A stretch of DNA of 64,000 nucleotides, taken from the NCBI GenBank assembly GCA_036338695.1, contig JAYZBQ010000009.1, positions 52,529 through 116,528 on the forward strand, read 5' to 3'. Both the position numbers and the translations under genes were made by a program. How positions within the stretch are numbered: position 1 is the first letter of the stretch; every line of letters starts with the position of its first letter. Under the pieces are notes generated by a model. It was not told the origin of the DNA and did no database searches. It saw nothing but the letters and a program-made list of their open reading frames with translations. Shown here piece after piece: positions 11,870 to 31,011 of this stretch. The DNA is from Myxococcota bacterium (GTDB lineage Bacteria; Myxococcota; UBA4151).

Positions 11870-11957
11870 AGGCGGACTTCGATCAGTTTGAGCTTGCGCC
11901 GGCGAGGCGAGGAACGTAGCGGGACACGCCCGCTGCTTGGCGGGACTTTAATCTCCA

Positions 11958-12026
11958 CGCTCGAGGCTGGAGATCCTCCCTGGGTGATCCCGCCTTCGTG
12001 CGCGGATTGGGCGGGTCGCTCGAGCG
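11958..12026 (+). promoter_or_regulatory. Structured rpsB 5' leader (probable S2 autoregulatory element)
   Basis: CGCTCGAG (11958-65) pairs with CTCGAGCG (12019-26). Inner CCCGCC/GGCGGG stem and a GGGT at 11982-85, directly upstream of rpsB. Confidence 0.5.
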
Positions 12027-12052
12027 GTCGTTTGAACCCGAAAGGAAGCTCG

Positions 12053-12871
12053 ATGAGCAAAAGCCAATTGTCCATGAAGAAGATGCTCGAAGTCGGTGCC
12101 CACTTTGGCCACCGCGTCTCGCGCTGGAACCCCAAGATGAAGCCCTTCATCTTTGGTGCGCGCAACGGGATCTACATTCTCAACCTTCAAGAGACACACT
12201 ACCGCTTCGCCAAAGCTTATGAGTTCGTCGCCAAGATGGCGTCACGCGGCGATCAACTCCTCTTCGTCGGCACCAAAACCGCCGCCGCTGAGACCCTGCG
12301 CGAGCAAGCCGAGCGAGCCAACCAACCGTACGTGACAGAGCGCTGGCTCGGCGGTACGCTCACCAACTGGGCGACGATTCGTCAGAGCGTGGAGCGGATG
12401 CGCAAGCTCGAGAAGCTCCTGGGTGACCAGGTGGCGGTGAGCAGCTACACCAAGAAAGAGCAGCTTGACATGGAACGCTCCATGGCAAAGCTCGAGCGCA
12501 ACCTCTCAGGTATCCGTGACATGAAGCGCCGCCCGGGCGCCGTGTTTGTGGTCGACATCAACCGTGAAGCGATCGCCGTTCGAGAAGCGCGCCGGCTGAA
12601 CATCCCCGTGATCGCCCTGGTCGACACCAACTGCGACCCGGACGTCGTCGATTATCCGATCCCGGCGAACGATGACGCCATCCGCTGCATCGAACTCTTC
12701 GCTTCGACGCTAGCCGACGCCTGCGTCGAAGGCGCCGCTCGCTACAAAGAAGAGCAGGCGCGGCGTCCCAAGAAAGAAGCCGCAGCTAAGGACAAAGCGC
12801 GCGAAGAGGGCGGTCCAGAGGTCGCCGTGATTCACAGCGCCAAGAAGGACACCAAAGAGAAAGAAGCTTAG
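12053..12871 (+). CDS. rpsB: 30S ribosomal protein S2
   Basis: GAHFGH, WNPKM, RWLGGTLTN, DTNCDP, NDDA. ATG 12053 follows AAGGA. Confidence 0.98.
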   Translation: MSKSQLSMKKMLEVGAHFGHRVSRWNPKMKPFIFGARNGIYILNLQETHYRFAKAYEFVAKMASRGDQLLFVGTKTAAAETLREQAERANQPYVTERWLGGTLTNWATIRQSVERMRKLEKLLGDQVAVSSYTKKEQLDMERSMAKLERNLSGIRDMKRRPGAVFVVDINREAIAVREARRLNIPVIALVDTNCDPDVVDYPIPANDDAIRCIELFASTLADACVEGAARYKEEQARRPKKEAAAKDKAREEGGPEVAVIHSAKKDTKEKEA

Positions 12872-12902
12872 TCGCTAAGCTGATAGATAAAGGATAGAAT
12901 CG

Positions 12903-13787
12903 ATGAAGATTACCGCTTCACAGGTCAAAGAGCTGCGCGACCGCACCGGCGCCGGCATGATGGATTGCCGCAAGGCGCTCGTCGAATCCGAGGGCAACCT
13001 CGACGAGGCGGTCGAGGTGCTGCGCAAAGCAGGGGCTGCCAAAGCGGCTAAGAAAGCCGGGCGTGTCGCTGCGGAAGGACTCGTTGACGCCGAGATCATG
13101 GACGACGGAACCGCTGTCCTCGTTGAGGTGAACTGCGAGACCGACTTCGTGGCGCGTAATGAGAGCTTCCGCTCGTTCGTCGGCACTATTAAAAGCACGG
13201 TCGCTGCAGACGGCGCGGACGATGTCGCCTCCAAGGTCGACACCGAGCGCACCGAGCTGGTGGCGACGATCGGTGAGAACATCCAAGTCCGGCGCGCCGA
13301 GCGCTTCGACTCGAGCAGCTCGAACTTTGCGTACGTTCACCCCGGCAACCGAATCGCCGTGATCCTCAAGATCGATGGCGGCGACGGCTCCGATGCGCTC
13401 AAGACCTTCGGCAAGGACCTGTGCTTCCACATTGCGGCAATGAACCCGCTGTGCACCAGCCCAGACGATGTCCCCGCTGACGTGATCGCCCAAGAGACGC
13501 GCATCGCGCGCGAGCAGCTGATGGCAGAGGGCAAGCCAGAGGCGATGATCGATAAGATCATCCCGGGCAAGCTCAAGCGCTTCTACAAGGATCGCTGCCT
13601 GCTCAACCAGGAGGCTGCGATGGGCGACGACGGCGTCACCAATCAGGCGCTGCTCGACCAGCTGAACAAGGCGAGCGCTACCCCCGTTCAGGTCGGTGGC
13701 TTCGTCCGCTACGAGCTCGGCGAAGGTATCGAGAAGAAGGAAGACAACCTGGCGGCTGAGGTCGCCGCCATGACCGGCGGTGCGTGA
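12903..13787 (+). CDS. tsf: Elongation factor Ts
   Basis: LRDRTGAGMMDCRKAL, EVNCETDFVA, GENI. Follows rpsB. Confidence 0.98.
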   Translation: MKITASQVKELRDRTGAGMMDCRKALVESEGNLDEAVEVLRKAGAAKAAKKAGRVAAEGLVDAEIMDDGTAVLVEVNCETDFVARNESFRSFVGTIKSTVAADGADDVASKVDTERTELVATIGENIQVRRAERFDSSSSNFAYVHPGNRIAVILKIDGGDGSDALKTFGKDLCFHIAAMNPLCTSPDDVPADVIAQETRIAREQLMAEGKPEAMIDKIIPGKLKRFYKDRCLLNQEAAMGDDGVTNQALLDQLNKASATPVQVGGFVRYELGEGIEKKEDNLAAEVAAMTGGA

Positions 13788-14501
13788 GTGAGTTACCAAC
13801 GCGTCCTGCTCAAGCTCAGCGGCGAAGCGCTGCAAGGTCAGCAGGGCTACGGGATTGACCCCAAGGTCCTCGCTGATCTCTCGGCGGAGCTCGCTGAAGT
13901 GCACGCAACAGGCACACAGCTCGGCTTGGTCTTGGGCGGCGGGAATATTTTTCGTGGGATCGCCGGTGCAAGCGCTGGGATGGACCGCGCCCATGCTGAT
14001 TACATGGGTATGCTCGCCACCGTGATCAACGCCCTTGCGATGCAGGATGCGCTCGAGAAGGCAGGCGTGCCGACGCGCGTGATGACCGCCATCAACATGC
14101 CGGAGGTGGCGGAGCCGTACATCCGGCGCCGTGCGATCTCACACCTCAACAAGGGGCTCGCTGTGATCTTTGCGGCGGGTACGGGGAACCCCTTCTTTAC
14201 CACGGACACTGCGGCTGCGCTGCGTGCGATGGAGGTCGGCGCAGACGTCATCCTCAAAGGGACCAAGGTCGACGGGATCTATGAAGAGGACCCGTTCAAA
14301 AACCCTGGCTCACGTCGCTTCGAGGAGATCAGCTACACGGAAGTGCTGCGGCGGCGACTTGAGGTGATGGACGCAACGGCGATCAGCCTCTGCCGTGAAA
14401 ACGGGATGCCGATTGCGGTGTTCAACATGAACGGGCGAGGGAACATTCAGCGTATGATCGCCGGTGACACGGCGATCGGTACGGTGGTCGTTCCGGACTG
14501 A
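13788..14501 (+). CDS. pyrH: UMP kinase
   Basis: [28 protein letters not shown] start. Confidence 0.98.
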
Positions 14502-14512
14502 AAGGCAGATAG

Positions 14513-15070
14513 ATGATCAACGAGGTCTTGGAAGAGGTTCAATCTGGGATGGATGAAACCATCGAGGCGATCCGTCGCGACCTAGCAAGACTCCGGACCG
14601 GTCGCGCCAACGCCAACATGCTTGAGCCGGTTCGTGTGGACTATTACGGCTCGGCGACGCCGCTCAACCAAATGGCGAGCGTCACGGTCCCCGAGGCGCG
14701 TATCCTTCAGATCAAACCTTGGGATAAAACAGCGATTAATGACATCGAGCGGGCGCTCCACGAGGCGAACCTCGGAGTCTCTCCGCAAAACGACGGTGAG
14801 GTGATCCGCCTGATCTTTCCGCCGACCACGGAAGAGCGCCGGCGCGAGTTCGTCAAGGAAGCCTGGGGGCAGATCGAGAACGGTAAGGTCTCCATCCGCA
14901 ACAAGCGCCGTGACGGAAACGACATGCTCAAAGAGCTCGAGAAAGAGGGCGAGATCAGCGAGGATGAGCTCAAGCGAGGGCTCGCTCGGGTTCAGGAGTT
15001 GACCGACTCCAACACCAAGGCTTTGGACGAACTCGGGAAATCTAAAGAAGAAGAGATCCTGACCGTTTAG
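14513..15070 (+). CDS. frr: Ribosome recycling factor
   Basis: LRTGRAN, VDYYG, PPTTEERR, IRNKRRD. Confidence 0.98.
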   Translation: MINEVLEEVQSGMDETIEAIRRDLARLRTGRANANMLEPVRVDYYGSATPLNQMASVTVPEARILQIKPWDKTAINDIERALHEANLGVSPQNDGEVIRLIFPPTTEERRREFVKEAWGQIENGKVSIRNKRRDGNDMLKELEKEGEISEDELKRGLARVQELTDSNTKALDELGKSKEEEILTV

Positions 15071-15088
15071 CGGTCAAAGACCGCCGTG

Positions 15089-15799
15089 ATGTCGGAGCTC
15101 CCTCGCCATGTCGCAATCATCATGGACGGCAACGGCCGCTGGGCACAGGCTCGACACCTCAGTCGGATCGATGGCCACCAAGCCGGGGCGAACACGGTAC
15201 GCCGCGTCACGACTCGGGCGCGCGAGCTCGGCATCGAATCGCTGACCCTGTACGCGTTCTCCACTGAAAACTGGCGGCGGCCGAAGGATGAGGTGCGCGG
15301 GCTGTGGAAGCTGCTCGTCGACTACCTTCGCTCCGAGCTGCCGACGCTCCTAAAGAACCAGATCCGGCTCAAGCTCATCGGCGATCCAGGCGCCATCCCG
15401 AAGCTCGCCCAAAATCGTCTCAACTCGGTGATTGAGCGCACCGCAGGCTCAAGCGCCATGACGCTCAATCTGGCGCTCAACTACGGCGCACAAAGCGAGC
15501 TCGTTCACGCCTTCAAGCAGATCCAGCGCCAGGGTGAAACGATCGACGCTGAGCAGATCGAGAGGCACCTGTATACCGCGGGTCAGCCGGCGGTCGACCT
15601 CTTGATCCGCACCGGCGGCGAGCGTCGGCTCAGCAATTTCTTGCTCTGGCAGGCAGCGTACGCCGAGCTCTACTTCTGTGACACGCTGTGGCCGGATTTT
15701 AGCGACGAGCACTTCGACCAAGCGCTCAACGATTTTCGACAGCGAGAGCGGCGCTTCGGTCAAACCAGCGCCCAGCTTAGCCAGCGAGCCGCACCATGA
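15089..15799 (+). CDS. uppS: Undecaprenyl/polyprenyl diphosphate synthase
   Basis: IIMDGNGRWA, FSTENW, RTGGERRLSNFLLWQ. Confidence 0.97.
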   Translation: MSELPRHVAIIMDGNGRWAQARHLSRIDGHQAGANTVRRVTTRARELGIESLTLYAFSTENWRRPKDEVRGLWKLLVDYLRSELPTLLKNQIRLKLIGDPGAIPKLAQNRLNSVIERTAGSSAMTLNLALNYGAQSELVHAFKQIQRQGETIDAEQIERHLYTAGQPAVDLLIRTGGERRLSNFLLWQAAYAELYFCDTLWPDFSDEHFDQALNDFRQRERRFGQTSAQLSQRAAP

Positions 15800-16620
15800 A
15801 CCTGCTCCTACGCATCCTCTCCGTTGCGGTCCTGCTCCCCATTGTGCTCGCCGCGATCCACTACGGGGGGCTCGCTTTCTACGGACTGCTGACGGTCGCC
15901 GTGGCGATTGCGCTGTATGAAGGGCTCGCCCTCGTGCTTCCAGACCTTGAAGAGCGACGCATTCAGACGCTCATCTTGGGCGGCACGCTCGGCGGCTTGG
16001 GCGCACTAATCCACATGGACTCGATGCCGGTTGCGTCGGGTCTTGCGCTGCTTCTATGCGGCTCGGCGCTCAGCGCTGCTGAGGTGGTCGCTCGCCCGGG
16101 CGAACTCGAGTCGGCGGCGCGCCGCTGGCAAGGCGCCGTCTTCGTTGCGCTCTACGCGGGCGTCCCGCTGCTGATGATGTTGGCGCTGCGCAAGCTGGGG
16201 ACTGCAGACCAGGGCACCCGCTTTCTCTACCTCTGCCTTGCGGCGACGTGGAGCAACGACACCATGGCGTACTTCGCCGGTCGAACCTTCGGTAAGCGCA
16301 AGATGCACCCGACGATCTCACCCAAAAAGACCTGGGAAGGGTTTGCGGGGGGCGTCCTTGGCAGTCTCGCCGCCGCCTTCGTGTGCAAGTCCCTCTTTCT
16401 ACCCGAGCTCAGCTGGGCGGTCGCGGCGGTCTACGGCTTGGTGATGGCGCCGCTGGTCCCGCTCGGCGATCTCGCCGAGAGCGTGCTCAAGCGCGTCTCG
16501 GGCGTGAAAGACAGCGGTCAGCTCATCCCGGGACACGGCGGTCTCTTGGATCGCGTCGATGCGCTCTTGTTTGCGCTGCCGTGGACCTATCTCGTGGCCT
16601 TGTTCACGATCCGCCCATGA
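15796..16620 (+). CDS. cdsA: Phosphatidate cytidylyltransferase
   Basis: Polytopic membrane protein. SPKKTWEG, GDLAESVLKR, KDSG..IPGHGG.LDRVD. Confidence 0.96.
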   Translation: MNLLLRILSVAVLLPIVLAAIHYGGLAFYGLLTVAVAIALYEGLALVLPDLEERRIQTLILGGTLGGLGALIHMDSMPVASGLALLLCGSALSAAEVVARPGELESAARRWQGAVFVALYAGVPLLMMLALRKLGTADQGTRFLYLCLAATWSNDTMAYFAGRTFGKRKMHPTISPKKTWEGFAGGVLGSLAAAFVCKSLFLPELSWAVAAVYGLVMAPLVPLGDLAESVLKRVSGVKDSGQLIPGHGGLLDRVDALLFALPWTYLVALFTIRP

Positions 16621-17768
16621 TCCGCATCGCCCTACTCGGCTCCACCGGCTCGATCGGGACCCAATGTCTCGACCTCGTCGAGCGGTTCCCAGAGCAGCTC
16701 GCCGTCGTTGGCTTGGGCGGCGGACGGCAGCTCGAGCTGCTCGCGCAACAAGCCAAACGCTTTCGACCGCGTCTGGTCACCTGTCAGGACGAGGGAGACG
16801 TGGCGAGGCTAACCGCTTTGATCGATGATCCGACCATCGCCATCGAGGCCGGCGCCGCAGGGCAAAGAGCGCTCGCAACGCTCGACGAGGCGGACACCGT
16901 GGTGGCGGCGGTCGTCGGCTACGCCGGGCTGGTCGGGACCCTCGCAGCCGCAGAGGCGGGCAAGCGCATCGCCCTGGCCAACAAGGAGAGCCTCGTCGCA
17001 GGCGGCGAGCTCGTCATGAAGACCCTTGCGCAAAACGGCGGTGAGATCATCCCGATCGACTCCGAGCACGTCGCCATCCATCAGTGCCTGAGTGGCGAGC
17101 AGCACGCCTCCATCCACCAGCTCTGGCTCACCGCAAGCGGAGGCCCTTTTCGAGGCGCCGATCGCAACGCGCTGGCTCACATCAGCGTCGATGAAGCGCT
17201 CGACCACCCGAACTGGTCGATGGGTCCCAAAATCACCATCGACTCGGCGACGCTCATGAACAAGGGGCTCGAGCTGGTCGAGGCGACGTGGTTGTTTGAC
17301 TGCCCACCGGATCAGGTGCAGATCGCCGTCCATCCCCCCAGCCTCGTTCACTCGATGGTCGAGTTTGTTGACGGCACCTTCAAGGCGCAGCTCGGCGCGC
17401 CCGATATGCGCTCGGCGATCGCCTACGCGCTCTCGCCATCGCCTCGTCTGCCGCTGCGCGCAGTCGACGGCGTCCGGCTCTGGAACCCGCTCGATCAGGC
17501 GCTTGAATTCGAACGTTATGATCGATCGGTCTTTCGAGCGCCCGACCTATGCCGAGCGGCGCTTCGCCAGGGCGGGGGGACGCCGGCGGCGCTCAACGCG
17601 CTCAACGAGGTGCTCGTGGCTCAGTTCCTGGGCGGTCGGCGAAGCTTTTTGAGCATCGTCGATGACTTGGAGCGCGGTTTGGAGGCGTTGTCGCAGCAGG
17701 CTCTGGCGGGCGACTCGCTCGAGGCGATCGTCGCCGCGGACGCAGCAGGGCGCGCGTGGGCGGGCTAG
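16617..17768 (+). CDS. dxr: 1-deoxy-D-xylulose-5-phosphate reductoisomerase
   Basis: LGSTGSIG, LANKESLV, PIDSEH, TASGGPF, HPNWSMG.KITIDSAT. Start at the ATGA overlap with cdsA. Confidence 0.97.
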   Translation: MIRIALLGSTGSIGTQCLDLVERFPEQLAVVGLGGGRQLELLAQQAKRFRPRLVTCQDEGDVARLTALIDDPTIAIEAGAAGQRALATLDEADTVVAAVVGYAGLVGTLAAAEAGKRIALANKESLVAGGELVMKTLAQNGGEIIPIDSEHVAIHQCLSGEQHASIHQLWLTASGGPFRGADRNALAHISVDEALDHPNWSMGPKITIDSATLMNKGLELVEATWLFDCPPDQVQIAVHPPSLVHSMVEFVDGTFKAQLGAPDMRSAIAYALSPSPRLPLRAVDGVRLWNPLDQALEFERYDRSVFRAPDLCRAALRQGGGTPAALNALNEVLVAQFLGGRRSFLSIVDDLERGLEALSQQALAGDSLEAIVAADAAGRAWAG

Positions 17769-19300
17769 AACGCTCGGCGTGGTGGAGGGCGGCGGCGCTC
17801 TTTGGGCTCTTCTTGGTCCCGCGCATAGCGCTGCTCGGAGACGCTCGCTGGACCGGTGAAGAGAGCTGGTTCTTCTGGGAGATCTATCAAACAGCGCAGG
17901 GCGAGCGTTGGTCTGCCTTGGGCACCCCCGTCTCCGGCACACGGGGCGCGCATCCCGGCCCCTACTTCTATTTTCTCCTCGCGCCCTTTGCCTGGAGTGG
18001 CTCGCCTTGGCTGACGAGCCTTGGCGTCGCGCTGCTCGATAGCCTGGGGCATCTGCTGGCGCTCATGGGGCTCGCTACGCTGCTGATCGGTCGACCGCAT
18101 CGGCGGGTGGCGCTGACCGTGGCGGCGCTGATCTTGGCACTGAGCCCGTGGGCGCTTCTGTACGCAGACCGCCCCTGGAACTCGAACCTCGTGAGCCTTC
18201 CCGTCGGGCTGGCGTTGCTCGGCTTTGCTCGGTGGCTCGAGGCGCCGCAGCGCTGGCGCGCCTTTGCTCTGCTCACCATCGGGTTGGCGACCTTACCGAG
18301 TTTCCATATGTCGGCGCCGATCATCGGACTGCCCATGCTGATGATGGTGGCTTGGCGCTGGCGAACGCTCAGACCAGCCAGCGTGATCACTGGAGCGGCG
18401 CTCTCCGTTATCATCTGGAGCCCTTATGCGCTCCACGAACTCAAGCACTCAGGGGCCAACACGCGTGGGCTAATGACCCGTAGCCTCCCGGCGGTCAGTG
18501 ACACCGAGAACACCGTTCTGGCGCTGAGCTGGCCGTGGCGCTTGGTCGCGCCGGAGATCGGTTACCACGCGCAGAAAGGGTACTGGTCACCGTATCAGCC
18601 GAGCGGATGGCGGCAGCCTGGTTCCTCGGCGCAGCGGTCGTGGCGAGCGATTCATGGTGACCTCGTGGCGCCAGGTGTCGCGCTCGGCGGCTTACTCATG
18701 CTGACGCTGTGGGTTGCTTATCTGGTCAGCCTGAAGAAGCGAGATCAGCGCGACCAACTCAGCGCGCTGTGGTTGAGCGGCACGCTGATCGGCTGGGGGC
18801 TGCTGCTGATCGCGGGGCGGCGCGCCTACCCGCATTACCTGCAGCCGCTCCTTCCCTACTACGCAGCCGTCGTCGGGCTCGGTTTTGCTCAGCTCTGGGA
18901 CCGCCCCAAACTGCGCAGCGCCCTCGGGCTGGCGCTCGCGATCAGTTTAGGCACCGGACTCGTCGTCACCGAGCGCTTTCAGCGACTCAACGATCGGCCC
19001 TTTGGTTTAAACGCCAATCTCTACACGGCTGATCTGATGCAGCGCTTCGGATCGATCAAACCCGTCTTTTGCGGCGCCCTTGGGTACCGAAATGAACGAC
19101 AACTCAGTCAGCTGATGCGCGTCACCCATCCAGACGCTGAAGGCGGCTCATCGCGCGGCTACCTCGTCCATCTACTCGAGGGCGAGGCTTCCGCAGAGGC
19201 GAAGCGATTGGCCCAGTGGTCGAGCACACGATACGGAATTCAGCACTTTTTAGTGCTCGGCGCTTTACCACAGCCGCTGCGGAGACTAGGGTGCCGGTAG
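17756..19300 (+). CDS. Polytopic membrane protein, probable GT-C fold (ArnT/PMT-like) glycosyltransferase
   Basis: Many TM helices. 'WTGEE' acidic pair after TM1, 'HPGPYFYFL', 'RPWNSN', 'YPHYLQP' resemble GT39/ArnT-like proteins. Start uncertain. Confidence 0.6.
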   Translation: MGGLERSAWWRAAALFGLFLVPRIALLGDARWTGEESWFFWEIYQTAQGERWSALGTPVSGTRGAHPGPYFYFLLAPFAWSGSPWLTSLGVALLDSLGHLLALMGLATLLIGRPHRRVALTVAALILALSPWALLYADRPWNSNLVSLPVGLALLGFARWLEAPQRWRAFALLTIGLATLPSFHMSAPIIGLPMLMMVAWRWRTLRPASVITGAALSVIIWSPYALHELKHSGANTRGLMTRSLPAVSDTENTVLALSWPWRLVAPEIGYHAQKGYWSPYQPSGWRQPGSSAQRSWRAIHGDLVAPGVALGGLLMLTLWVAYLVSLKKRDQRDQLSALWLSGTLIGWGLLLIAGRRAYPHYLQPLLPYYAAVVGLGFAQLWDRPKLRSALGLALAISLGTGLVVTERFQRLNDRPFGLNANLYTADLMQRFGSIKPVFCGALGYRNERQLSQLMRVTHPDAEGGSSRGYLVHLLEGEASAEAKRLAQWSSTRYGIQHFLVLGALPQPLRRLGCR

Positions 19301-19302
19301 TC

Positions 19303-19320
19303 TGAATGAGGATTCATTCA
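19303..19320. promoter_or_regulatory. FadR-type operator TGAATGA-N4-TCATTCA
   Basis: Perfect 7-4-7 inverted repeat 3 nt before the TetR start. Same half-sites and spacing as the B. subtilis FadR(YsiA) box. Confidence 0.8.
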
Positions 19321-19323
19321 ATT

Positions 19324-19992
19324 ATGAGCCGCAGCCCCGACAAGCGTCATCTGATCATCACCGCCGCGCAAAAAGTCTTCTCACAAGTGGGCTTTGACCG
19401 AGCTCGAATCTCGGACATTGCTCGCCGGGCGGGCGTCGCTGACGGAACCATCTACCTTTATTTTAAAAGCAAAGATGAGCTGCTCATCAGCCTGTTTGAA
19501 GAGCGCGTCGCTCCGGCGATGCAGGCGATCGAGGCGAAAGTCCAAGAGGGTCATCAAGATCCGCGAGAGCGCTTTGCGCAGCTGATCAGAGCCTACCTCG
19601 GGGCGATGCAGAGCGACCCCTCGCTGGGCTCCATCATCACCATGCAGGTTCGCCAGAGCCGGCGCTTTGTCACCGACTACGACAACCGCCCATTGGCCAA
19701 GTTCTTCTCGGTGCTGCGCGCCATCCTCGACGACGGAATAAAGCAAGGGCTGTTTCGTCGTGACGTATCGATCGATGCGCTTCGCTGGATGGTCTTTGGC
19801 AGCCTCGACGCGTTCACGTTGGCGTGGGGGCTTGGGCGCAACAGCGCCACCGACCTCAACGACCTCGGGGACCACCTCGTCCGGCTCACCCTCCGAGGGC
19901 TCAGCTCGGGCGACAACCCAACCTTGATGCCGCAGCCGGCGCCGACGATTCAGCAAGACACCACCGACACCTTTGACCCAGCATTGGACTAA
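19324..19992 (+). CDS. fadR: TetR-family regulator, B. subtilis FadR(YsiA)-like
   Basis: HTH 'IARRAGVADGTIYLYFKSKDELLISLF'. Heads a beta-oxidation operon and is preceded by a FadR-type box. Confidence 0.8.
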   Translation: MSRSPDKRHLIITAAQKVFSQVGFDRARISDIARRAGVADGTIYLYFKSKDELLISLFEERVAPAMQAIEAKVQEGHQDPRERFAQLIRAYLGAMQSDPSLGSIITMQVRQSRRFVTDYDNRPLAKFFSVLRAILDDGIKQGLFRRDVSIDALRWMVFGSLDAFTLAWGLGRNSATDLNDLGDHLVRLTLRGLSSGDNPTLMPQPAPTIQQDTTDTFDPALD

Positions 19993-19994
19993 GC

Positions 19995-21134
19995 ATGATC
20001 TCATTTGGATTGACCGAAGACCAACTCGAATACCAGCGCATGGCGCGCCAATTCATCGCGCAGACGGTGATCCCCCATGCAGGGCACTGGGATGAGACCG
20101 GACATTTCCCGAAAGACGCCATCCGCAGCGCCTGGGAGAACGGTCTGCTCAACCTGTGCATCCCAAGCTCGGTCGGGGGCGCAGGCATGCCGCTGGTGGA
20201 CACGCTGATCATCAGCGAGGAGATCTCCTACGGCTGCGTCGGGTACTCGACCTCGTGCATGGCGAATGAGCTGGCGCTCACCCCGATCGTTCTCGGCGCC
20301 GACGAAGATCAGAAGCGTAAGTTCCTCAAGCCATTCGTCGACGAGTTCAAGCTTGCGGCGTTTTGCCTGAGTGAGCCGGGCGCAGGATCGGACGCAGCGT
20401 CCTTGCGGACCACGGCTCGTCGTGAGGGCGATGAGTGGGTCATCAACGGTCAAAAACAGTGGATCACGAACGCAACCCACGCGGACTTTTACACGGTCTT
20501 TGCGACCGTGGATCGAGAGGCGGGCCACCGCGGCATTACCCTCTTTGCCGTACCTCGTGACACGCCTGGCATCACGGTCGCTCCCCATGAAAATAAGATG
20601 GGGCAACGCTGCTCGGACACGGCGCCGATCAGCTTTGAGGACGTGCGGGTGCCGGCGGATCACTGCATCGGCGGTCCGGGGAATGGCTGGAAGATCGCCA
20701 TGCACACGCTCGACTTTAGCCGCCCGCTCGTCGCCATGTCGGCGGTGGGTGTCGCCCGGCGCGCGCTTGAGGAGTCGATCAACTACGCCAAAGAGCGCAA
20801 GACATTCGGCAAACCCATCGGGCAGCATCAGGCGATCGGTTTCATGCTCTCGGACATGGCAGCCAAGACGCAGGCTGCTCGGCTGCTGGCGCTCGAGGCA
20901 GCTTGGCGGACCGACCAAGGCTTGCCCGCCAACAAAGAGGCGAGCTTCGCCAAGGCGATGTGCGCCGACTGGTGCATGGAGATCTGCACCGACGCCGTGC
21001 AGATCTTCGGCGGCTACGGCTACACCAAAGAGTACCCAGTCGAGAAGCTGATGCGAGACGCTAAGCTCATCCAGATCTACGAAGGAACCAGCCAAATTCA
21101 GCGTATTGTGATCTCGCGAGAGCTCATGCGCTAA
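19995..21134 (+). CDS. Acyl-CoA dehydrogenase
   Basis: FCLSEPGAGSD, NGQKQWITN, KMGQR, QIFGGYGY, IYEGTSQIQR. Confidence 0.96.
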   Translation: MISFGLTEDQLEYQRMARQFIAQTVIPHAGHWDETGHFPKDAIRSAWENGLLNLCIPSSVGGAGMPLVDTLIISEEISYGCVGYSTSCMANELALTPIVLGADEDQKRKFLKPFVDEFKLAAFCLSEPGAGSDAASLRTTARREGDEWVINGQKQWITNATHADFYTVFATVDREAGHRGITLFAVPRDTPGITVAPHENKMGQRCSDTAPISFEDVRVPADHCIGGPGNGWKIAMHTLDFSRPLVAMSAVGVARRALEESINYAKERKTFGKPIGQHQAIGFMLSDMAAKTQAARLLALEAAWRTDQGLPANKEASFAKAMCADWCMEICTDAVQIFGGYGYTKEYPVEKLMRDAKLIQIYEGTSQIQRIVISRELMR

Positions 21135-21197: not shown

Positions 21198-21947
21198 ATG
21201 AAGATACTCGTACCGATCGCACGCACCGAAGATTACAACGCGCGCATCGTCGTCAATAAAGCAGGCGATGACATCGAACGCGGCGGCGTGGCGATGGTGA
21301 TCAACCCCTTTGATGAGATCGCCGTCGAGGAGGCGCTGCGGCTCTTGGATGGTGGCGAAGGTGAGATCATCGTCGTCGCCATCGGTGGCGACGAGGCTGC
21401 GCCTGAGCTGCGTCGAGCGCTTGCGATGGGCGCGCATCGGGCGATCCAGATCAACACCGAGGTCAAGCTGATGCCCGAGGTCGTGACGCCGCTGCTCGCA
21501 GCGGTCGCTGAACGCGAGCAGCCCGACCTGGTCTTGATGGGCAAGCAGAGCATCGACGGCGACTCCGGACAGGTCGCGCAACGGCTGGCGCATCGCCTCG
21601 ACTGGCCGCAGGCGACCTTCGCCTATGAAGTGAGCGTTGAGGGCGGCACCGTAACCGTCGGCTGCGAGGTCGACGGGGGCACCGAAACCGTCGCCTTCGA
21701 CCTACCCGGCGTGATCAGCACGGACCTGCGCCTAAACGAGCCCAGGCTGCCGAAGCTCCCCGATATCATGAAGGCGAAAAAGAAACCCTACGAGGTCTTG
21801 ACCGACGCGGAGCTTGGCGGCGTCGAGGAGAGCCCAATTAAAGTGCTCTCGCTGTCCCCGCCGCCCGAGCGTCAAGCCGGCCAAATCGTCGCCGATGTCG
21901 ATACGTTGATCGCAAAGCTGCGCGACGAAGCCAAGGTGCTCGCTTAA
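21198..21947 (+). CDS. etfB: Electron transfer flavoprotein beta subunit
   Basis: NPFDEIAVEEA, ALAMGA, GKQSIDGD, LNEPR. Confidence 0.96.
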   Translation: MKILVPIARTEDYNARIVVNKAGDDIERGGVAMVINPFDEIAVEEALRLLDGGEGEIIVVAIGGDEAAPELRRALAMGAHRAIQINTEVKLMPEVVTPLLAAVAEREQPDLVLMGKQSIDGDSGQVAQRLAHRLDWPQATFAYEVSVEGGTVTVGCEVDGGTETVAFDLPGVISTDLRLNEPRLPKLPDIMKAKKKPYEVLTDAELGGVEESPIKVLSLSPPPERQAGQIVADVDTLIAKLRDEAKVLA

Positions 21948-21987
21948 ATCAAACGATAGACACCGCGATGCGGTGGAATGGTGAATC

Positions 21988-23385
21988 ATGAAGACTGGAT
22001 TATTGATTGCCTTGGGTGTTGCCGTCGCCGTGGCGCTCGGATGGATGGGGACTCGAAAAAAGGAAGAACCTCAGCCGGCGCCTGAGCCAAAGCCCGAGCC
22101 CAAGCCGGAGCCCGTCGCTGAGCCCGCGCCGCAAGCCGCAGCGCCCAGCGAGAAACCAACCCTGGTGATGTCGCCCGAAGAGGCGCAACAGGCGGCCACT
22201 GAGTCGATGGCGTCCACCGAGCCGACGGTGACCCCAGAAGAGCCCACGCAAGAACCTGCGGCGGCAGAAGAGGCACCAGCGGAGCTAGAAGCGGCGACCG
22301 AGGGCGCGCTCGCCGATGACTCAGGCGATGAGGTCGAGCTTGAGAGCACCGCGGACGAAGATCCGAGCGAAGCTGAGACCGTGCTGGCTCCTGTCGAGGT
22401 ACCGGCGGCGACTGAGAACCCCGCAGGCGGCAACGCGGTCGTGTGCCTCCTCGACGTCGCCGGCGGCGACCTCTCGGTGCCTAACCGAGCGACCCTAAGC
22501 GCCGCACAGCAAGTCGCCAGCGCACGTGGCGCCGACTTGCACGTCGTCTGCATGGGGGCGGACACCTCCAGCGCAGCGAACGCTTCGGCAGAGGGGGTCA
22601 CCGCCGTCCACGCCATTACCCACGATCAACTCGGAGACGGCGTCGCTGAGACGTACTACGCTGCGGCGATGCAAGCGCTCGCTCAGGTGGCAGCGGACGT
22701 GGTGATCGCCCCATCGAGCAGCGTCGGCAAAGGGTACCTGCCCCGCCTCGCCGAACAGCTCGGCTGCGGCATGGTGACCGAGATTTTATCGGTCGAGTCC
22801 GGCGATACCTTCACGCGCGCCCTGTGGGCAGGAAGCGTCATCGCCACGGTCCAAGGCACCGGCCGACTGGTCGTCTCCGTGCGCGCCACCGGGTTTGAGC
22901 CCGCCGCCACGCAGGCTGCTGATGTTCAAGCGATCGCCTTTGAGCCCCCGCAGACCAAGACACGCTTTGTCGGCCGAGAGAAGACGGAGAGCGCCCGCCC
23001 GGATCTGAGCGAGGCGTCGGTTGTGGTCTCAGGCGGACGTGGCACCAAAGGCGACTTCGCCCCGATCGAGCAGCTTGCAGACGCCCTAGGGGCTGCGATG
23101 GGCGCCTCGCGCGCAGCGTGCGACGCAGGCTGGGTACCGAATGATCTCCAGGTCGGTCAGACCGGTAAGGTCGTGGCGCCGAGCCTCTACATCGCTGCGG
23201 GTCTATCCGGCGCGATCCAGCACATCGCAGGGATGAAGGGCTCGAAAACCATCGTTGCGATCAACAAGGACGAGGAGGCGCCGATCTTTGGCGTCGCCGA
23301 CTATGGGCTCGTCGCCGACCTGTTTGAGGTTTGTCCAGAACTTGCCGATAAGGTCAGTGAACAAGGACTAAAACCCACCGCCTAA
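21988..23385 (+). CDS. etfA: Electron transfer flavoprotein alpha subunit with N-terminal TM helix and acidic Pro/Glu/Ala linker
   Basis: [37 protein letters not shown]. About 145 extra N-terminal residues in the same open frame. Confidence 0.92.
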
Positions 23386-23415
23386 TGGTCTAAAGAGGGA
23401 AAGCGAGGGAGCAGC

Positions 23416-25458
23416 ATGCACGGGATCGCCGTCGTCTCGGTTTTAGGGGTCTCGCTGGCGCTTTTCGCCCGGAATTGCCTGCGCCTCGTGCGGATGATCC
23501 GGCTCGGCGTCGACGACTTCACGCTCTCGCACCTCGGAGGTCGCCTCAAGGATGTCGCCTACTACGTCATCGGTCAGGCGAAGCTGCTGCGTGACCCGGG
23601 CGCGGGCATCCTGCATATGGCGTTCTTTTATGGGTTCCTGCTGATCCAGATCGGGCTGGTGGAGTTCGTCCTCTCGGGCGTCCTCTTTGACGAACAAGGC
23701 AACGGCTTTAGCTACGCGTGGCTCTTTGGGACCCCTGCTGAATCCCTCATCATGAAGGGCTATTGGATCAGCCAAGAGCTGGCGATCTACGGCGTCGGCT
23801 TGGCCTGCTTCATCGCCATCTTCCGGCGCTGGTTCTTGCGCGCCTTCTTGCCGAGGCTCAAGAAACGCTCGGCCGACGCTGAGCTGATCATTTTGTTTAT
23901 TGCGATCCTCATGGTGACGCTTGCGGGCGTGCAAGCCGCAGATGTGGTCATGGGACACGGTGTCTTCGCCGACGCGCAAGGTGATTGGCTCTACGGACGG
24001 CCAGGGACTCGGCTGTTCGCTGCGGCCCTGACCACCGAGTCGGCCAAGGGGCTCTACCCCTTCTTCTGGTGGGGTCACTTCCTGACCATCATGATCTTCA
24101 TGAATTACCTGCCGTTCTCGAAGCACATGCACCTGCTCGGAGCGGTCCCAAACTTCTTCCTGCGCCCGCGCGGCGAAGGGCTTATCCTGAACCCGGTCGA
24201 CTTTGAGTCGAGCGAGGAGTTCGGTGTGGGCCGGGTCAACCTCTTTGGCGCCTCCGACCTGCTCGACACCTTCGCCTGCGCAGAGTGCAACCGCTGCACC
24301 GTGGTCTGCCCGGCGAACACGACCGGCAAGCCGCTCGATCCAGCCAAAATCGTGCACGACATGAAGGACAACCTCTACGCCAATGAGGTGAACCTACTCG
24401 ATTGGGTCAACAAAGGGAGCGAGGGCGAGCCCAACTGCGAGGTGAACCTCATCGGTGGGGCCGACAGCGAGGGCTCGATCCATTTTGACGAGCTCTGGAG
24501 CTGCACGACCTGTGGCGCCTGCGTCCAAGAGTGCCCAGTCGGGATCCGCCATGTGCCCAAGATCGTCGACATGCGCCGTCATATGGTGATGATGGAGGGC
24601 AACAATCCACCGGAGCTCGACTCGGTCTTTCGTGGGATGGAGACCAACGCCAACCCGTGGGGTCTGGGCGCGAACACCCGGTTTGACTGGGCTGACGGCT
24701 TGGAGATCCCGACCGTCGAGACCAACCCGGACTTCGAGTACCTGTATTACGTGGGCTGTGCTGGGAGCTTTGACGATCGAGCCAAGAAGATCACGGCGGC
24801 GATGGTCAAGCTGCTGCGGCTTGCGAACGTCAACTTCGCCGTGCTCGGCAAAGGCGAGAGTTGCAACGGCGAAACGGCCCGGCGACTCGGCAACGAATAC
24901 CTCTTCGTCGAGATGGCGGGTACGCTGATCGACACCTTCAAGCGCTACGACGTGCAGAAGGTCATCACGACCTGTCCCCACTGCCTCAATACGTTCAACA
25001 AGGACTATCCGACCGTCGACGCCGAGTTTCAGCTTGAGGTTCACCACCACACGGACTTCCTCAACGGCTTGGTCCGCTCCGGAGCGATTGCGCTCGATGC
25101 GAGCGACGCCGGGAAGGTCACCTATCACGACTCGTGCTATCTGGCGCGCTACAACGGGATCGAAGACAGCCCGCGCGACCTGCTCGAGGCCGCTGGGGCC
25201 GATCTGGTCGAGATGACGCGCAACCGCGACCGGGGTTTCTGCTGCGGCGCTGGGGGCGGTCGCATGTGGATGGAGGAGCACCTCGGGACGCGGGTCAACC
25301 ACAATCGAACCCAAGAGGCGGTTGAGACCGGCGCCACGACGGTGGCGGTCGCCTGCCCATTTTGCATGACCATGATCGGTGACGGCACCCGAGAGATCGG
25401 GGTCGATGACCAAGTCGTGGTCAAGGATATCGCCGAGGTTCTCGCCGAACGCGTCTAA
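23416..25458 (+). CDS. Membrane-bound Fe-S oxidoreductase (FadF-like; probable ETF:quinone oxidoreductase)
   Basis: N-terminal TM domain with His residues, two CxxCxxCxxxCP motifs, C-terminal CCG-type domains (CPHC, HDSC, CCGAGG, CPFC). Next to etfBA. Confidence 0.88.
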
Positions 25459-26832: not shown

Positions 26833-29800
26833 ATGATGCGGTGGATCACCGTTTTTTGCTGCCTGATCAGCGCGACCGTTTGGGCACAAGAACAAGAGCC
26901 GAACAACGACCGAGCGTCGGCGAACGCAATCGCTCACGGCGACGTCATCCGAGGCTCGATCACGCGCGGCGACGAAGACTACTTTACCATCACGCTGGGC
27001 GGTACGGCGACCATCGATGTCTGGACCGCAGCGGCGCAGGGTGGTCAGAACATGGACACCTACATCGAGATGTACCAAGAGGGGCAAGAAGCTCGAGTAG
27101 CGTTCAACGATGACCGGGGGGGGCGCGCTCAAGGGCTCTACAGCGGTCTGAACCGCCCTGACACACCGGCTGGAACCTACTACTTTAAAGTGCGCGGCTT
27201 CAGCGCCTTCTCGACCGGTGACTATCAGATTCATCTCGAGTTAAGCGGCGGCCCTGACCTGAGCGTCTCAAACTTTGCGCTCAACCCCCAGCCTGCTCCA
27301 AACCAGCCGTGGGCAGCCTCAGTACAGGTCAACAACGGCGTCGATGCAGCGATCGCCACGGTGGCGCGCCTTTACAACGGCGACGCCGTCATCGGCGAGC
27401 AGCCCGTCGCGGCGCTCGCCGCCAACGCCAACGCCCAGGTCGCCTTTGCGAACCTCGCAGCCCTGCCGATCGGTTATCACGACCTGCGCGTCTGCGCAGA
27501 CGCCACGGGCTTGATCCAAGAACTCGACGAAGAGAACAACTGCGCCACGCTGCGCGCCACCGTCGGCTTGGACGTCGTGGTTCAGAACCTAAGCCTCACC
27601 CCGAACAACCCGGACGTGGGTCAAGGGTGGGCAGCGCAAGCGACGATACGCAACGCGCTCGCCGGCGCGCTGCCTGCGGCGCAAGCCCAGCTGCTGCTCA
27701 ACGATGTACCCGCAGGTACCTGCGAAGTCCCGGAGATCGCCAACGGTGGTGAACACGTGTGTCAGTTCAACGAGCTCGCCGGCCTCCCCTCGGGCATCAC
27801 GGTGGTCAAGATCTGCGGCGACACCGGCGCAGCGATCGAGGAGGCGTCCGAAGAGAACAACTGCGCCGAGCGACGTATTGCGATCGGTTCTGATCTGATC
27901 ACAGAGAACCTGAACATCAACCCCGTCAACCCGGGGCTCAACGAGACCTTCAGCGCCAGCGTCCGTATTCGGAACCGCTTTGCGCCGGAGACGCCCGCCA
28001 CGGTCGCTCGTCTCTTCGTCGGTGATCAAAGCTGGGGCGAGTGCGAGGTCCCTGCGCTAGCTGCAGAGGCACACCACGACTGCTCGCTCGAGAACCTAAA
28101 TCCGCCGCCCGCTGGGCGACTCACGGTGCGTTTTTGCGCCGACGCCGAGGAGCAATGGGGCGAGCGAAACGAGGACAACAACTGCGCGGAGTCGAACTTC
28201 TTCAACGGGCCGGACCTGCAGATTCAGCAGGTTGTGCTCAACCCCAACCCCCCGGTTGAGGGGCGAGATGCCCAGGCGCTCATCGTGGTCCGCAACGCGG
28301 TCGCTGACCCCACCGACAACGCCACGACGGTGCGGATCACGGAGAACGGTCAGCCGGTCGGTCAGCCCTGCGCGATCGCCCCGGTCGGCGGCAACGGGAT
28401 CGGCGCCTGTCAGATCAACGAGCTGCGCTTTGAGGGTGGGGACCACACCCTGCGCATCTGCGCCGACGCCGACAACGAGCAGGTCGAGATCAACGAGGAG
28501 AACAACTGCACCGAGCTTCAGTTCAGCGTCGAGGATGTCGATGATTACGAGCCCGACAACACGCGCCTTGAGGCGACGTTGATCCGTGACAACGCCCCGC
28601 AAGACCATACCCTGCACAACGCCGAGGACATCGACTACCTGTTCTTCGTGGTCAACCGCCCGAGCGAGGCGCAGATCACGACCGGCCCCAGCCAAGAGGG
28701 CGACGCCTTCAACACGCGCGTTGCCCTGCTCGACGCCGAGGGGCGTGAGCTGACGAGCAACAACAACGGCGGCGAGGGCAACTGGTCTCGCCTCATCCGC
28801 GAGCTTCAACCGGCGACCTATTACATCCGGGTCAACCGCGGAGGAAATGACGCCGTCGATCGCTACCGGATCAACCTCCGGCTCATCGACCTCGCGGCGC
28901 GCCCACCCGACCTGAGCCTTGGCGTCGTGAGCGTGGCGCCGAACAACCTCTTCGCCGAGCAACCCTTTACGGTCTCAACCACCGTCAGCAATGCGGGGAA
29001 CGCCGGCGTGAGCCAGGCGACAATCGCACGCCTGACGATTAACGGCGACAACGCCGGTGAGTGCCAGCTCGCAGAGATTGCGACCGGGGGCAGCGCGCCG
29101 TGCTCGATCAACGTGGCTCAGGGCGTCGCCGCAGGTGACGTCGTCCTGCGCGTCTGCGTCGACCCTGCGAACGCCATGGAAGAGCGGGACGAGACCAACA
29201 ATTGCGGTCAGCTCAGCCTGCACCTCTTCGCCATCGACGAATTTGAGCCGGACAATGCGCGTGACGACGCCAGCGACCTACCCCTCGATGAGGCGCAGAG
29301 CCACACACTGCACGTCGCCGACGACACCGACTGGGTGCGTGTGACCATGAGCGAGCCGGGCACGCTCACCGTATCCGGCGTGCTGATCGAGGGCTCGGGT
29401 GGCGACATCGACGGCCGACTGACCGCGCCGGGCGGCGAGACGCTGGCGCGGGCGACCGGACAAGGTCCCGTCGAGTTGAGCTACGGACCCGCTGATCGCG
29501 GCGTCTTCTTTGTCGAGATCACGGGACGTGGCGGCGCGGCGGTCGATGGCTACACGCTCACCGCAACGCACCAGGGGATGAACGGGGACGTCGTCCGCGA
29601 CATCCGGCTCAGGAACGTGACGGTCGATCCAGAGGCGCCCGCACCAAACACCGCGTTTGCGGTGGACATTGACAGCGTCAATGACGGCAACCTGATCTCA
29701 TCTCCCACTCCTGTCGCCTTGTCCGTCGGCGGCGAGGAGATCACGCGCTGCGTGCTGCCTCCGGCGGATCCAGGTGACCGCACCCGGTGCCGCGACGTCG

Positions 29801-31011
29801 AGATGCCGGGCCTCGAAGAGGGCACTTATGAGCTCGAAGCCTGCATCGATCCGGACCAAGAACTCGGCGAATCCGAAGAGGCGCAAGCGAACAATTGCGC
29901 AACCATCGAGCTCGTTGTCGGCGAGCCAACGCCGCCGCAGAACGATCTTCGCCTCCAGAACCCATCGCTCAACCCCGCCGCGCCCATCGCCGGCGAGATG
30001 ATCACGCTGCGGATGGAGGTATTTTACCAAGGAGACGACTCGACGCCGCCCACGACAGTGGACATTAAAGTCAACGATGAGAGCGTCTTTACCTGTCAGA
30101 TCCCGGCGCTCGACGGCCGCATGACGCGCACGGCGCGCTGCCGCACCTTGCCCGGGGTCCTGCAGATGGGTGACGAGCCCCAGGTGATGCAGGCTTGCGT
30201 CGATCCGACCAACCAGATCGAAGAGACGGACGAGACCAACAACTGCATCCGGCTGCTGATGGCGCCCGGTGGGCTGATCGGCGACGACCCAGACCCCTAC
30301 GAGGAAGACAACACCTGGCAGACGGCAGGGTCGCTGCGAGACACCTCGGACGCAAACCGAGCACAAGAGCACAACCTGCACACCAGCGATGACGTCGACG
30401 TGATGAAGTTTACGCTGCAGCAGGACGATGCGATCAACGTTCGGCTCCAAGACGTCCTCGGCTCGGTCACGGTTCACCTGATCGACGGACCGGCCGCTGT
30501 CGGGGACGCAGGTGCCCGCATGGAGCTTGAGCTCGATTTCGACGACGAAGGGCTCGCGAGCACCGGTGAACTCTCGGCGGGGACCTATGGCTTGATAGTG
30601 CGCAGCGCCGATGGCTTCGCCGTCGGGCGCTACCGGATCAACGCATGGAGCGAACTCGGTCCACCCATCCCGGATGCCGGCCCTTTACCGCCGGACGCGG
30701 GACCTCCCGGCGAATGTGTTAGCAACGACGACTGCACCGGCGGTCAACGCTGTGTGACGGACGATCCCGAGCCATACTGCACCGACCCTTGCGAGACGGT
30801 TGTCGATTGTCCAGTTGGATTCCAGCTGACCTGTCGAGAGATCAGCGCAGGCACCAAGGCTTGCATCCGCGGCGAGGCGCCGCCGACCGTGGGTCCTGAG
30901 CCACCGGCGCAAAGCTGCGCCTGCAGCGGCGACATCGGGAGCGCTGGAACGCTCGGTTTCCTTGGGTTGCTGGCGCTGGCTTACAAGCGCCGGAGGCGAC
31001 ACGCCAGCTAA
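26833..31011 (+). CDS. Large surface protein with 7 CARDB-like and 4 PPC-like domains and MYXO-CTERM-like sorting tail
   Basis: Signal peptide, seven [PD]L...E..E.NNC units, four E[PE][ND]N-initiated PPC-like units. C-terminus is CAC + TM + KRRRR. Confidence 0.85.
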   Translation: MMRWITVFCCLISATVWAQEQEPNNDRASANAIAHGDVIRGSITRGDEDYFTITLGGTATIDVWTAAAQGGQNMDTYIEMYQEGQEARVAFNDDRGGRAQGLYSGLNRPDTPAGTYYFKVRGFSAFSTGDYQIHLELSGGPDLSVSNFALNPQPAPNQPWAASVQVNNGVDAAIATVARLYNGDAVIGEQPVAALAANANAQVAFANLAALPIGYHDLRVCADATGLIQELDEENNCATLRATVGLDVVVQNLSLTPNNPDVGQGWAAQATIRNALAGALPAAQAQLLLNDVPAGTCEVPEIANGGEHVCQFNELAGLPSGITVVKICGDTGAAIEEASEENNCAERRIAIGSDLITENLNINPVNPGLNETFSASVRIRNRFAPETPATVARLFVGDQSWGECEVPALAAEAHHDCSLENLNPPPAGRLTVRFCADAEEQWGERNEDNNCAESNFFNGPDLQIQQVVLNPNPPVEGRDAQALIVVRNAVADPTDNATTVRITENGQPVGQPCAIAPVGGNGIGACQINELRFEGGDHTLRICADADNEQVEINEENNCTELQFSVEDVDDYEPDNTRLEATLIRDNAPQDHTLHNAEDIDYLFFVVNRPSEAQITTGPSQEGDAFNTRVALLDAEGRELTSNNNGGEGNWSRLIRELQPATYYIRVNRGGNDAVDRYRINLRLIDLAARPPDLSLGVVSVAPNNLFAEQPFTVSTTVSNAGNAGVSQATIARLTINGDNAGECQLAEIATGGSAPCSINVAQGVAAGDVVLRVCVDPANAMEERDETNNCGQLSLHLFAIDEFEPDNARDDASDLPLDEAQSHTLHVADDTDWVRVTMSEPGTLTVSGVLIEGSGGDIDGRLTAPGGETLARATGQGPVELSYGPADRGVFFVEITGRGGAAVDGYTLTATHQGMNGDVVRDIRLRNVTVDPEAPAPNTAFAVDIDSVNDGNLISSPTPVALSVGGEEITRCVLPPADPGDRTRCRDVEMPGLEEGTYELEACIDPDQELGESEEAQANNCATIELVVGEPTPPQNDLRLQNPSLNPAAPIAGEMITLRMEVFYQGDDSTPPTTVDIKVNDESVFTCQIPALDGRMTRTARCRTLPGVLQMGDEPQVMQACVDPTNQIEETDETNNCIRLLMAPGGLIGDDPDPYEEDNTWQTAGSLRDTSDANRAQEHNLHTSDDVDVMKFTLQQDDAINVRLQDVLGSVTVHLIDGPAAVGDAGARMELELDFDDEGLASTGELSAGTYGLIVRSADGFAVGRYRINAWSELGPPIPDAGPLPPDAGPPGECVSNDDCTGGQRCVTDDPEPYCTDPCETVVDCPVGFQLTCREISAGTKACIRGEAPPTVGPEPPAQSCACSGDIGSAGTLGFLGLLALAYKRRRRHAS

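Follow-up and report, generated by a model that had tools for sequence, protein, structure and literature searches.

In a 64,000-nucleotide stretch from a Myxococcota bacterium (GenBank assembly GCA_036338695.1, contig JAYZBQ010000009.1, positions 52,529 to 116,528; hereafter the window), the alpha subunit of the electron transfer flavoprotein (ETF) carries an N-terminal extension that very probably anchors it to the membrane in some manner, as judged from its sequence. We favor, as the probable arrangement, an N-out anchor that keeps EtfAB on a leash at the cytoplasmic side of the membrane and raises its local concentration at the membrane oxidoreductase EtfD while soluble dehydrogenases visit. 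ETF is the textbook soluble shuttle of electrons. The etfA open reading frame (ORF; 21988-23385, + strand) encodes 465 amino acids (aa) and joins in a single frame a hydrophobic helix, an Arg-Lys-Lys (RKK) motif, an acidic linker and an intact EtfA core, with the following parts:

21988..22053, + strand: etfA start and N-terminal hydrophobic helix (aa 1-22), predicted to be an uncleaved N-out anchor (AlphaFold, hydropathy, charge pattern, start analysis).
22054..22428, + strand: RKK and acidic Pro/Glu/Ala-rich linker (aa 23-147), predicted to be disordered (the per-residue AlphaFold confidence pLDDT, composition, and pN/pS, the ratio of nonsynonymous to synonymous proportions).
22150..22239, + strand: conserved 30-aa motif within the linker (aa 55-84), present in genus g1 only, a candidate binding element (identity, pN/pS).
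22429..23385, + strand: EtfA core, domains I and II, nearest to the human and Paracoccus canonical ETF alpha (Pfam, structure and sequence comparison).

The protein begins with Met-Lys, followed by a 20-residue uncharged stretch, RKK and a Glu/Pro/Ala-rich segment. A preceding reading of the letters alone (the sequence-only reading) had proposed a membrane helix and long acidic linker fused in frame to EtfA; translation of the ORF and Pfam, which places ETF at aa 159-314 and ETF_alpha at aa 339-417, both over cut-off, bear this out. The N-terminal and linker segments it quoted are all present in frame with the core, and the extension does occupy the space after etfB, which ends at 21947 and leaves a 40-nt gap before etfA. 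As the EtfA core starts at about aa 148, the linker is 125 aa long; it is composed of 26% Asp/Glu, 18% Pro and 20% Ala, contains no aromatic residues and has a net charge of -26. The helix is not due to chance: the best 19-residue hydropathy, 2.01 in this EtfA and 1.64-2.98 in relatives of full length, exceeds the highest value reached by 104 EtfAs of ordinary length, 1.11. AlphaFold modeling from a 39-row alignment predicted a helix at aa 3-21 (pLDDT about 80) and a folded core from about aa 150; confidence was low over most of aa 23-145 (pLDDT <50 at aa 32-59 and 83-125), save for a helix at aa 63-75. The combination is not a genome-wide habit, since only 3 of 6642 stop-to-stop ORFs of at least 150 aa pass a filter for a helix plus acidic linker. 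An ESM Atlas search with aa 1-150 gave no usable match, and the 30 lines listed from a tblastn search of the extension against its own genome held low-complexity matches only, so that a paralogous copy of the linker motif may still exist. An NCBIfam GspB match to aa 4-96 reached 18.4 bits against a cut-off of 100 and was read as compositional.

Two studies provide gap-free DNA contigs across the extension: X1 spans 21916-23800 with 5 differences and X3 spans 21483-23090 with 9. One of the two is possibly the source sample. Misassembly, for which the sequence-only reading had proposed a check of read support, is therefore unlikely. This EtfA falls in a 90% cluster of 17 members, among them copies of 465 aa from contigs about 3.7 Mb long.

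Analysis of the 11 distinct full N-termini revealed the same charge pattern in each, a hydrophobic helix followed by Lys or Arg on its C-terminal side, with a net charge before the helix of -2 to +1. A motif scan, made without a trained predictor, found no AxA, lipoprotein Cys or twin-Arg in any of the 11. An uncleaved N-out anchor fits both results, and the cleaved signal considered earlier finds no support in this motif inspection. The helix varies in sequence (32-80% identity) and retains its hydrophobicity, so it is probably a generic lipid anchor. Pathway logic requires that the EtfA core lie in the cytoplasm.

The class to which the bacterium belongs comprises six genomes from one family and two genera, g1 and g2, each with one EtfA. 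Relatives retain the extension, as the sequence-only reading would have it: the linker was detected in all six genomes and the helix in five, with the full helix-linker-core frame in four. In G004 the contig ends inside the linker; in G001 the gene is split within a repeat, with helix and linker at one contig end and a second contig that starts with linker and core. This repeat, a tandem EPEAAA array (L032:6533-6912, L037:3-170), interrupts the assembly, and EEPAA repeats occur in G004 and P0015; repeat expansion seems to underlie the differences in linker length. Linker figures exclude P0015, P0016 and G005, in which the core pattern was unmatched, and helix counts exclude P0012, which is without its N-terminus.

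In a protein search with EtfA, the best 120 of 7984 matches included 13 extended clusters (P0002-P0012, P0015, P0016), the rest being 269-321 aa long; P0013 and P0014, also among these 120, are truncated or frameshifted members of the clade. Among 123 distinct EtfA loci outside the family, 118 had etfB within 120 nt, two had a longer gap with no coding extension and three were not assessable, so that no coding extension was found at any of the 120 assessable loci. Among the loci examined, the helix-linker feature spans the whole class and is confined to it. Related cluster members bear NCBI names such as Myxococcales or Myxococcota bacterium, the sequencing runs with this DNA are mostly marine, and some database entries of anchored EtfAs are annotated just as hypothetical or FAD-binding proteins. 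In trees of the EtfA core, a long stem (0.68-1.19 changes per column) leads to the anchored clade, suggesting that the core changed faster after the extension was gained.

The etfA gene lies in a one-strand cluster of the order tetR-fadE-etfB-etfA-etfD with intergenic gaps of 2-63 nt:

19306..19992, + strand: TetR-family regulator (TetR_N plus YsiA-like C-terminus), first gene of the cluster and presumably FadR-like (Pfam; same place in relatives; upstream of etfB in locus L153).
19995..21134, + strand: fadE, acyl-CoA dehydrogenase, predicted soluble electron donor (Pfam Acyl-CoA_dh_N/M/1; maximum 19-residue hydropathy 1.34).
21198..21947, + strand: etfB, of ordinary length (249 aa), without an N-terminal signal (Pfam ETF, E 1e-39).
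23416..25458, + strand: EtfD/EMO/FadF-type membrane heme b/iron-sulfur (Fe-S) oxidoreductase, predicted electron acceptor (Mycobacterium smegmatis EtfD 9OJN, E 1.6e-117).

The last of these had been called FadF-like in the sequence-only reading and is indeed an EtfD/EMO/FadF homologue. It has a membrane domain with heme-ligand His, two 4Fe-4S motifs and two CCG domains, and its heme and cluster ligands are invariant in a 26-row alignment; by homology and operon context it would act as an ETF:quinone oxidoreductase. It has no long C-terminal tail, ending 35 aa after the last CPxC. The genome (93.6% complete) holds a single EtfA and a single CCG-domain gene, which is etfD, and a search of it for ETF-QO gave no match to PF05187, the Fe-S domain. 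Its 16 ORFs of the acyl-CoA dehydrogenase family look soluble: none has an N-terminal transmembrane-like helix, and the top 19-residue hydropathy, 1.74, is internal. Adjacency of etfA and etfD was observed in 6/6 class genomes against 2/123 outside loci (flanks 1.5-4 kb).

We hypothesize that the uncleaved helix inserts N-out/C-in and that EtfB assembles on the tethered EtfA core. Soluble acyl-CoA dehydrogenases would oxidize fatty acyl-CoA and the membrane-held EtfAB would take the electrons, which would pass from EtfD to quinone. The linker may give the ETF head access to dehydrogenases as they arrive and to the distal Fe-S clusters of EtfD alike; a polymer scaling law gives an estimated reach of 7-8 nm end-to-end and a contour of 45 nm. 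Membrane confinement would offset the weak, transient contact between ETF and EtfD described in other organisms, and the leash could keep the carrier near its sole acceptor without blocking donor exchange. Because docking in the solved EMO:ETF complex runs through EtfB, the leash would act indirectly.

Every EtfA segment, extension included, shows pN < pS in comparisons with G003, G001 and G002; these are uncorrected proportions with synonymous sites near saturation. The motif at aa 55-84 has identities of 93, 87 and 67% and pN/pS of 0.05, 0.13 and 0.57 against G003, G001 and G002, respectively, which makes it as constrained as the core versus the first two genomes but not versus G002. By this measure it is under strong selection in part of genus g1. 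Such conservation, the helix modeled within the motif and its repetition in P0012 would suit a specific docking device, in which the N-terminal helix or the motif binds EtfD or beta-oxidation enzymes and forms a stable membrane metabolon. The constant adjacency of etfD within the class points the same way, as does the mycobacterial EtfD, whose disordered tail is predicted to bind ETF in the accessible text of its report (PMC13083937). However, neither genus g2 nor the amphipathic-anchor proteins described below carry the motif, its constraint is weaker versus G002, and the sequence of the N-terminal helix is variable; we regard docking as an unlikely explanation of the extension, if the best of the alternatives to a leash. 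Complex prediction for EtfD with EtfA aa 1-95 scored 0.00 in two runs against a mark of 0.32 and bears neither way on binding.

A membrane-bound extension could also serve another end, such as polar or lipid-inclusion localization or limiting O2 reduction by free ETF semiquinone, or be a tolerated accretion in one lineage. Most relatives run the same pathway leash-free, and the linker outside the motif diverges fast (pN/pS 0.26-0.61), as such explanations would allow. We nevertheless consider them improbable, as both genera have kept the extension at an EtfA identity of about 50% between them, and a second lineage has a similar linker behind a different head.

Still less probable is translation from an internal start, or a clipped N-terminus, either of which would yield an ordinary soluble EtfA. 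The linker does contain in-frame ATG, GTG and TTG codons, with ATG 61 and ATG 74 inside the g1-conserved motif, and there are two short database entries in g2 and own clusters, which are maybe fragments. Shine-Dalgarno (SD)-like pairing, scored with a generic anti-SD (the assembly did not yield the 16S 3' end of the organism itself), is -7.2 kcal/mol at ATG 21988 versus -2.8 at GTG 22381, the internal start put forward in the sequence-only reading. The first ATG has the best pairing 5' of the core in four of the five genomes with a readable N-terminus (G000, G001, G003, G005), and in G005 it directly follows AAGGAG. No start within 20 codons 5' of the core is common to the six genomes; G004 and G002 have none there, and those of the other four differ and pair weakly. 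The canonical EtfA Met is lost in anchored EtfAs, and the helix is kept in all 11 full N-termini. A helix acting as an export signal or N-in anchor, which would place EtfA in the periplasm and could draw on the single Lys before the hydrophobic stretch in P0001 and P0008, is hardly credible for the sole EtfA of a genome whose EtfB and dehydrogenases carry no signals, with basic residues after the helix and no cleavage, lipoprotein or twin-Arg motif.

To return to the leash, a search for long EtfAs (at least 362 aa) gave 1097 matches, of which the best 120 were examined, 108 of them new proteins. Three of these 120 (P0141, P0201, P0219) have an Ala/Glu/Pro acidic linker of about 80-90 aa behind M[GS][FW][FW]KK[IL]FGGG and no transmembrane helix. 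P0279, of the same amphipathic type, came up among the best 150 matches of a profile search against 50% representatives; 12 of the other long matches of that search were inspected, and 11 look like eukaryotic presequences or fusions. Four other long EtfAs with a hydrophobic stretch and no acidic linker look like chimeras or unrelated fusions. Among the same best 120 of 1097, P0137, P0217, P0220 and P0225 are acyl-CoA dehydrogenase-ETF fusions of 912-914 aa. The N-termini of P0141, P0201, P0219 and P0279 follow nearly the same pattern as the membrane-targeting sequence of Escherichia coli MinD, given as KGFLKRLFGG in the accessible text of PMC5471200; there it is C-terminal, whereas it is N-terminal on these EtfAs and absent from the EtfA of the window. 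These proteins are, by their sequences, probably a second form of membrane-leashed ETF.

Locus L153 has the order tetR-etfB-etfA, with GGAGG before the first Met of P0141 (L153:3131-4381) and no etfD after it. A strict first look for P0141 in 301 genomes of the phylum found no close relative among the matches listed (best identity 53%), and a metagenome scan revealed one amphipathic-type locus among 80. Three quick trees disagree: one shows an open polytomy, one makes the two types sisters with a Shimodaira-Hasegawa-like approximate likelihood ratio (SH-aLRT) of 85, and one places the amphipathic group with short EtfAs at 93. A constrained tree joining both anchor types had the higher likelihood (approximately unbiased test, p-AU 0.96). 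A convergent origin of the two types is thus unsupported, the constrained test favoring one origin but the quick trees disagreeing, and a common origin of transmembrane-anchored and amphipathic EtfAs is not rejected. Speculatively, a deep branch of Myxococcota-related bacteria might have leashed ETF once and then swapped the anchor, with a transmembrane helix here and a MinD-like helix in a sister lineage. Under this tentative scheme a disordered leash on either partner would be a general design that solves the weak ETF-EtfD contact, with the linker motif as a docking element; such a design is suggested because the EtfA leash has a counterpart on the other partner, the disordered tail with which mycobacterial EtfD would catch ETF.

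Several observations weigh against a functional membrane leash. EtfD homologues were detected in 40 of 41 genomes searched, mostly alongside an untethered EtfA, so the leash is not required by the pathway and would rather be an optimization. Many outside EtfDs are also tail-less, stopping 34-39 aa past the last CPxC, and a "tether swap", in which the EtfD tail was lost where the EtfA leash was gained, is unsupported for this reason. The positive-inside signal is modest in G002 and G005, where the helix is followed by a single Arg and a strongly acidic linker. An internal ATG of G002, at aa 72, pairs better (-6.6) than its first ATG (-5.0), and internal GTGs of G005 are of similar pairing strength. 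In the second lineage, the N-terminal 9-mers have a hydrophobic moment of 0.38-0.49, under the 95th percentile of the background (0.58). Three studies contributed RNA-library contigs that overlap the region in part (X15, 21293-22038 and 22137-22455; X17, 21827-22038 and 22132-22295; X19, 22211-22377), and transcription is only suggested because these data are contigs without a silent-region control. X15 and X17 both end at 22038 and resume near 22135, which we read as a graph break at a PEPK repeat, the DNA contigs being continuous there.

Other features of the window lie around these genes. The first is in the gap between etfB and etfA:

21961..21975, + strand: short GC stem-loop just 5' of the etfA start (folding energy).

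Its energy is -9.5 to -12.7 kcal/mol in four g1 genomes and -4.5 in G005, with a weak consensus fold of 3 pairs. Counterparts lie at L033:6573-6614, L032:6504-6544 and L036:528-575; the hairpin overlaps an SD-like GGTGG, also scores terminator-like on the minus strand, and could tune the EtfA:EtfB ratio. Farther downstream, 26833-31011 encodes a protein of 1392 aa, predicted to be secreted, in which domains are repeated and a hydrophobic segment near the C-terminus is followed by basic residues, an end that we take to resemble a myxobacterial sorting signal; similar genes occupy the same place in relatives. Upstream, a conserved block at 11888-17768, presumably rpsB-tsf-pyrH-frr-uppS-cdsA-dxr, runs straight into a gene for a 514-aa membrane protein (17756-19300) without a good Pfam match, and then into the fad cluster.

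Among solved ETFs, the EtfA core is closest to the human (1EFV, E 1e-65) and Paracoccus (1EFP, E 2e-61) proteins, the others scoring 4e-40 or weaker, and it may therefore belong to a canonical (non-bifurcating, AMP-containing) ETF. These canonical alpha subunits share the two-domain core, are the top Foldseek matches and are likewise encoded after etfB, and the flavin adenine dinucleotide (FAD)-site motifs SRA, QVGQTG and GAIQH align with human ETF. Canonical ETF is a soluble-fraction protein with no membrane anchor, whereas the EtfA of the window bears, by its sequence, a hydrophobic helix at aa 3-21 within a 147-aa helix-plus-linker extension; aa 1-155 are unmatched in all 14 solved EtfA sequences. 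An anchored EtfA was not described in the literature searched, judged from titles and abstract starts, with supplements and most subscription journals outside its scope.

The partner enzyme also has well-described counterparts. In the mycobacterial EtfD (9OJN), the heme ligands His78 and His241 align with the invariant H67 and H239, and the Fe-S and CCG cysteines are kept. The accessible text of PMC13083937 describes a disordered C-terminal tail of 13-30 kDa predicted to bind soluble ETF, and reports that ETF of Mycobacterium smegmatis is lost on purification and that vesicles need added ETF. The disordered segment thus sits on the EtfD tail in mycobacteria, and here on EtfA behind its own helix, with a tail-less EtfD. 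The EMO:EtfAB of Syntrophus aciditrophicus has the same acceptor family and donor class, ETF alternating between dehydrogenase and membrane oxidoreductase; in the accessible part of that report ETF docks on EMO via EtfB, transiently and without a ternary complex (bioRxiv 10.64898/2026.08.18.745454). There ETF is soluble, EMO has two hemes and runs in reverse, and this part mentions neither anchor nor tether. For the leash itself, ZipA has the same order of parts, an N-terminal helix, an unstructured region and a cytoplasmic globular domain, according to the accessible text of PMC6016244; its sequence and its function in cell division are unrelated, and the analogy is for the leash alone. Covalent ETF fusions (EtfB-EtfA and the acyl-CoA dehydrogenase-ETF proteins of 912-914 aa) also hold ETF near a partner, but they join folded partners, and those listed all lack the pairing of a single membrane helix with an acidic linker.

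Together, these comparisons indicate that a helix-leashed EtfA would be a new form of the known ETF-EtfD system, without new chemistry. Its scope is narrow, six genomes of one class and four clusters of a second lineage, and it would chiefly interest specialists in flavoproteins and bacterial bioenergetics. Elsewhere ETF and EtfD/EMO bind so weakly that their contact does not survive purification, as the accessible parts of both reports indicate (PMC13083937; bioRxiv 10.64898/2026.08.18.745454), and a naturally leashed ETF, if true, shows one way in which cells offset it. What a multi-donor carrier gains and loses from its tether could then be tested by simple truncation, and the protein would offer a ready construct for capturing the ETF-EtfD complex; the mycobacterial counterpart of this system is a target of drug discovery.
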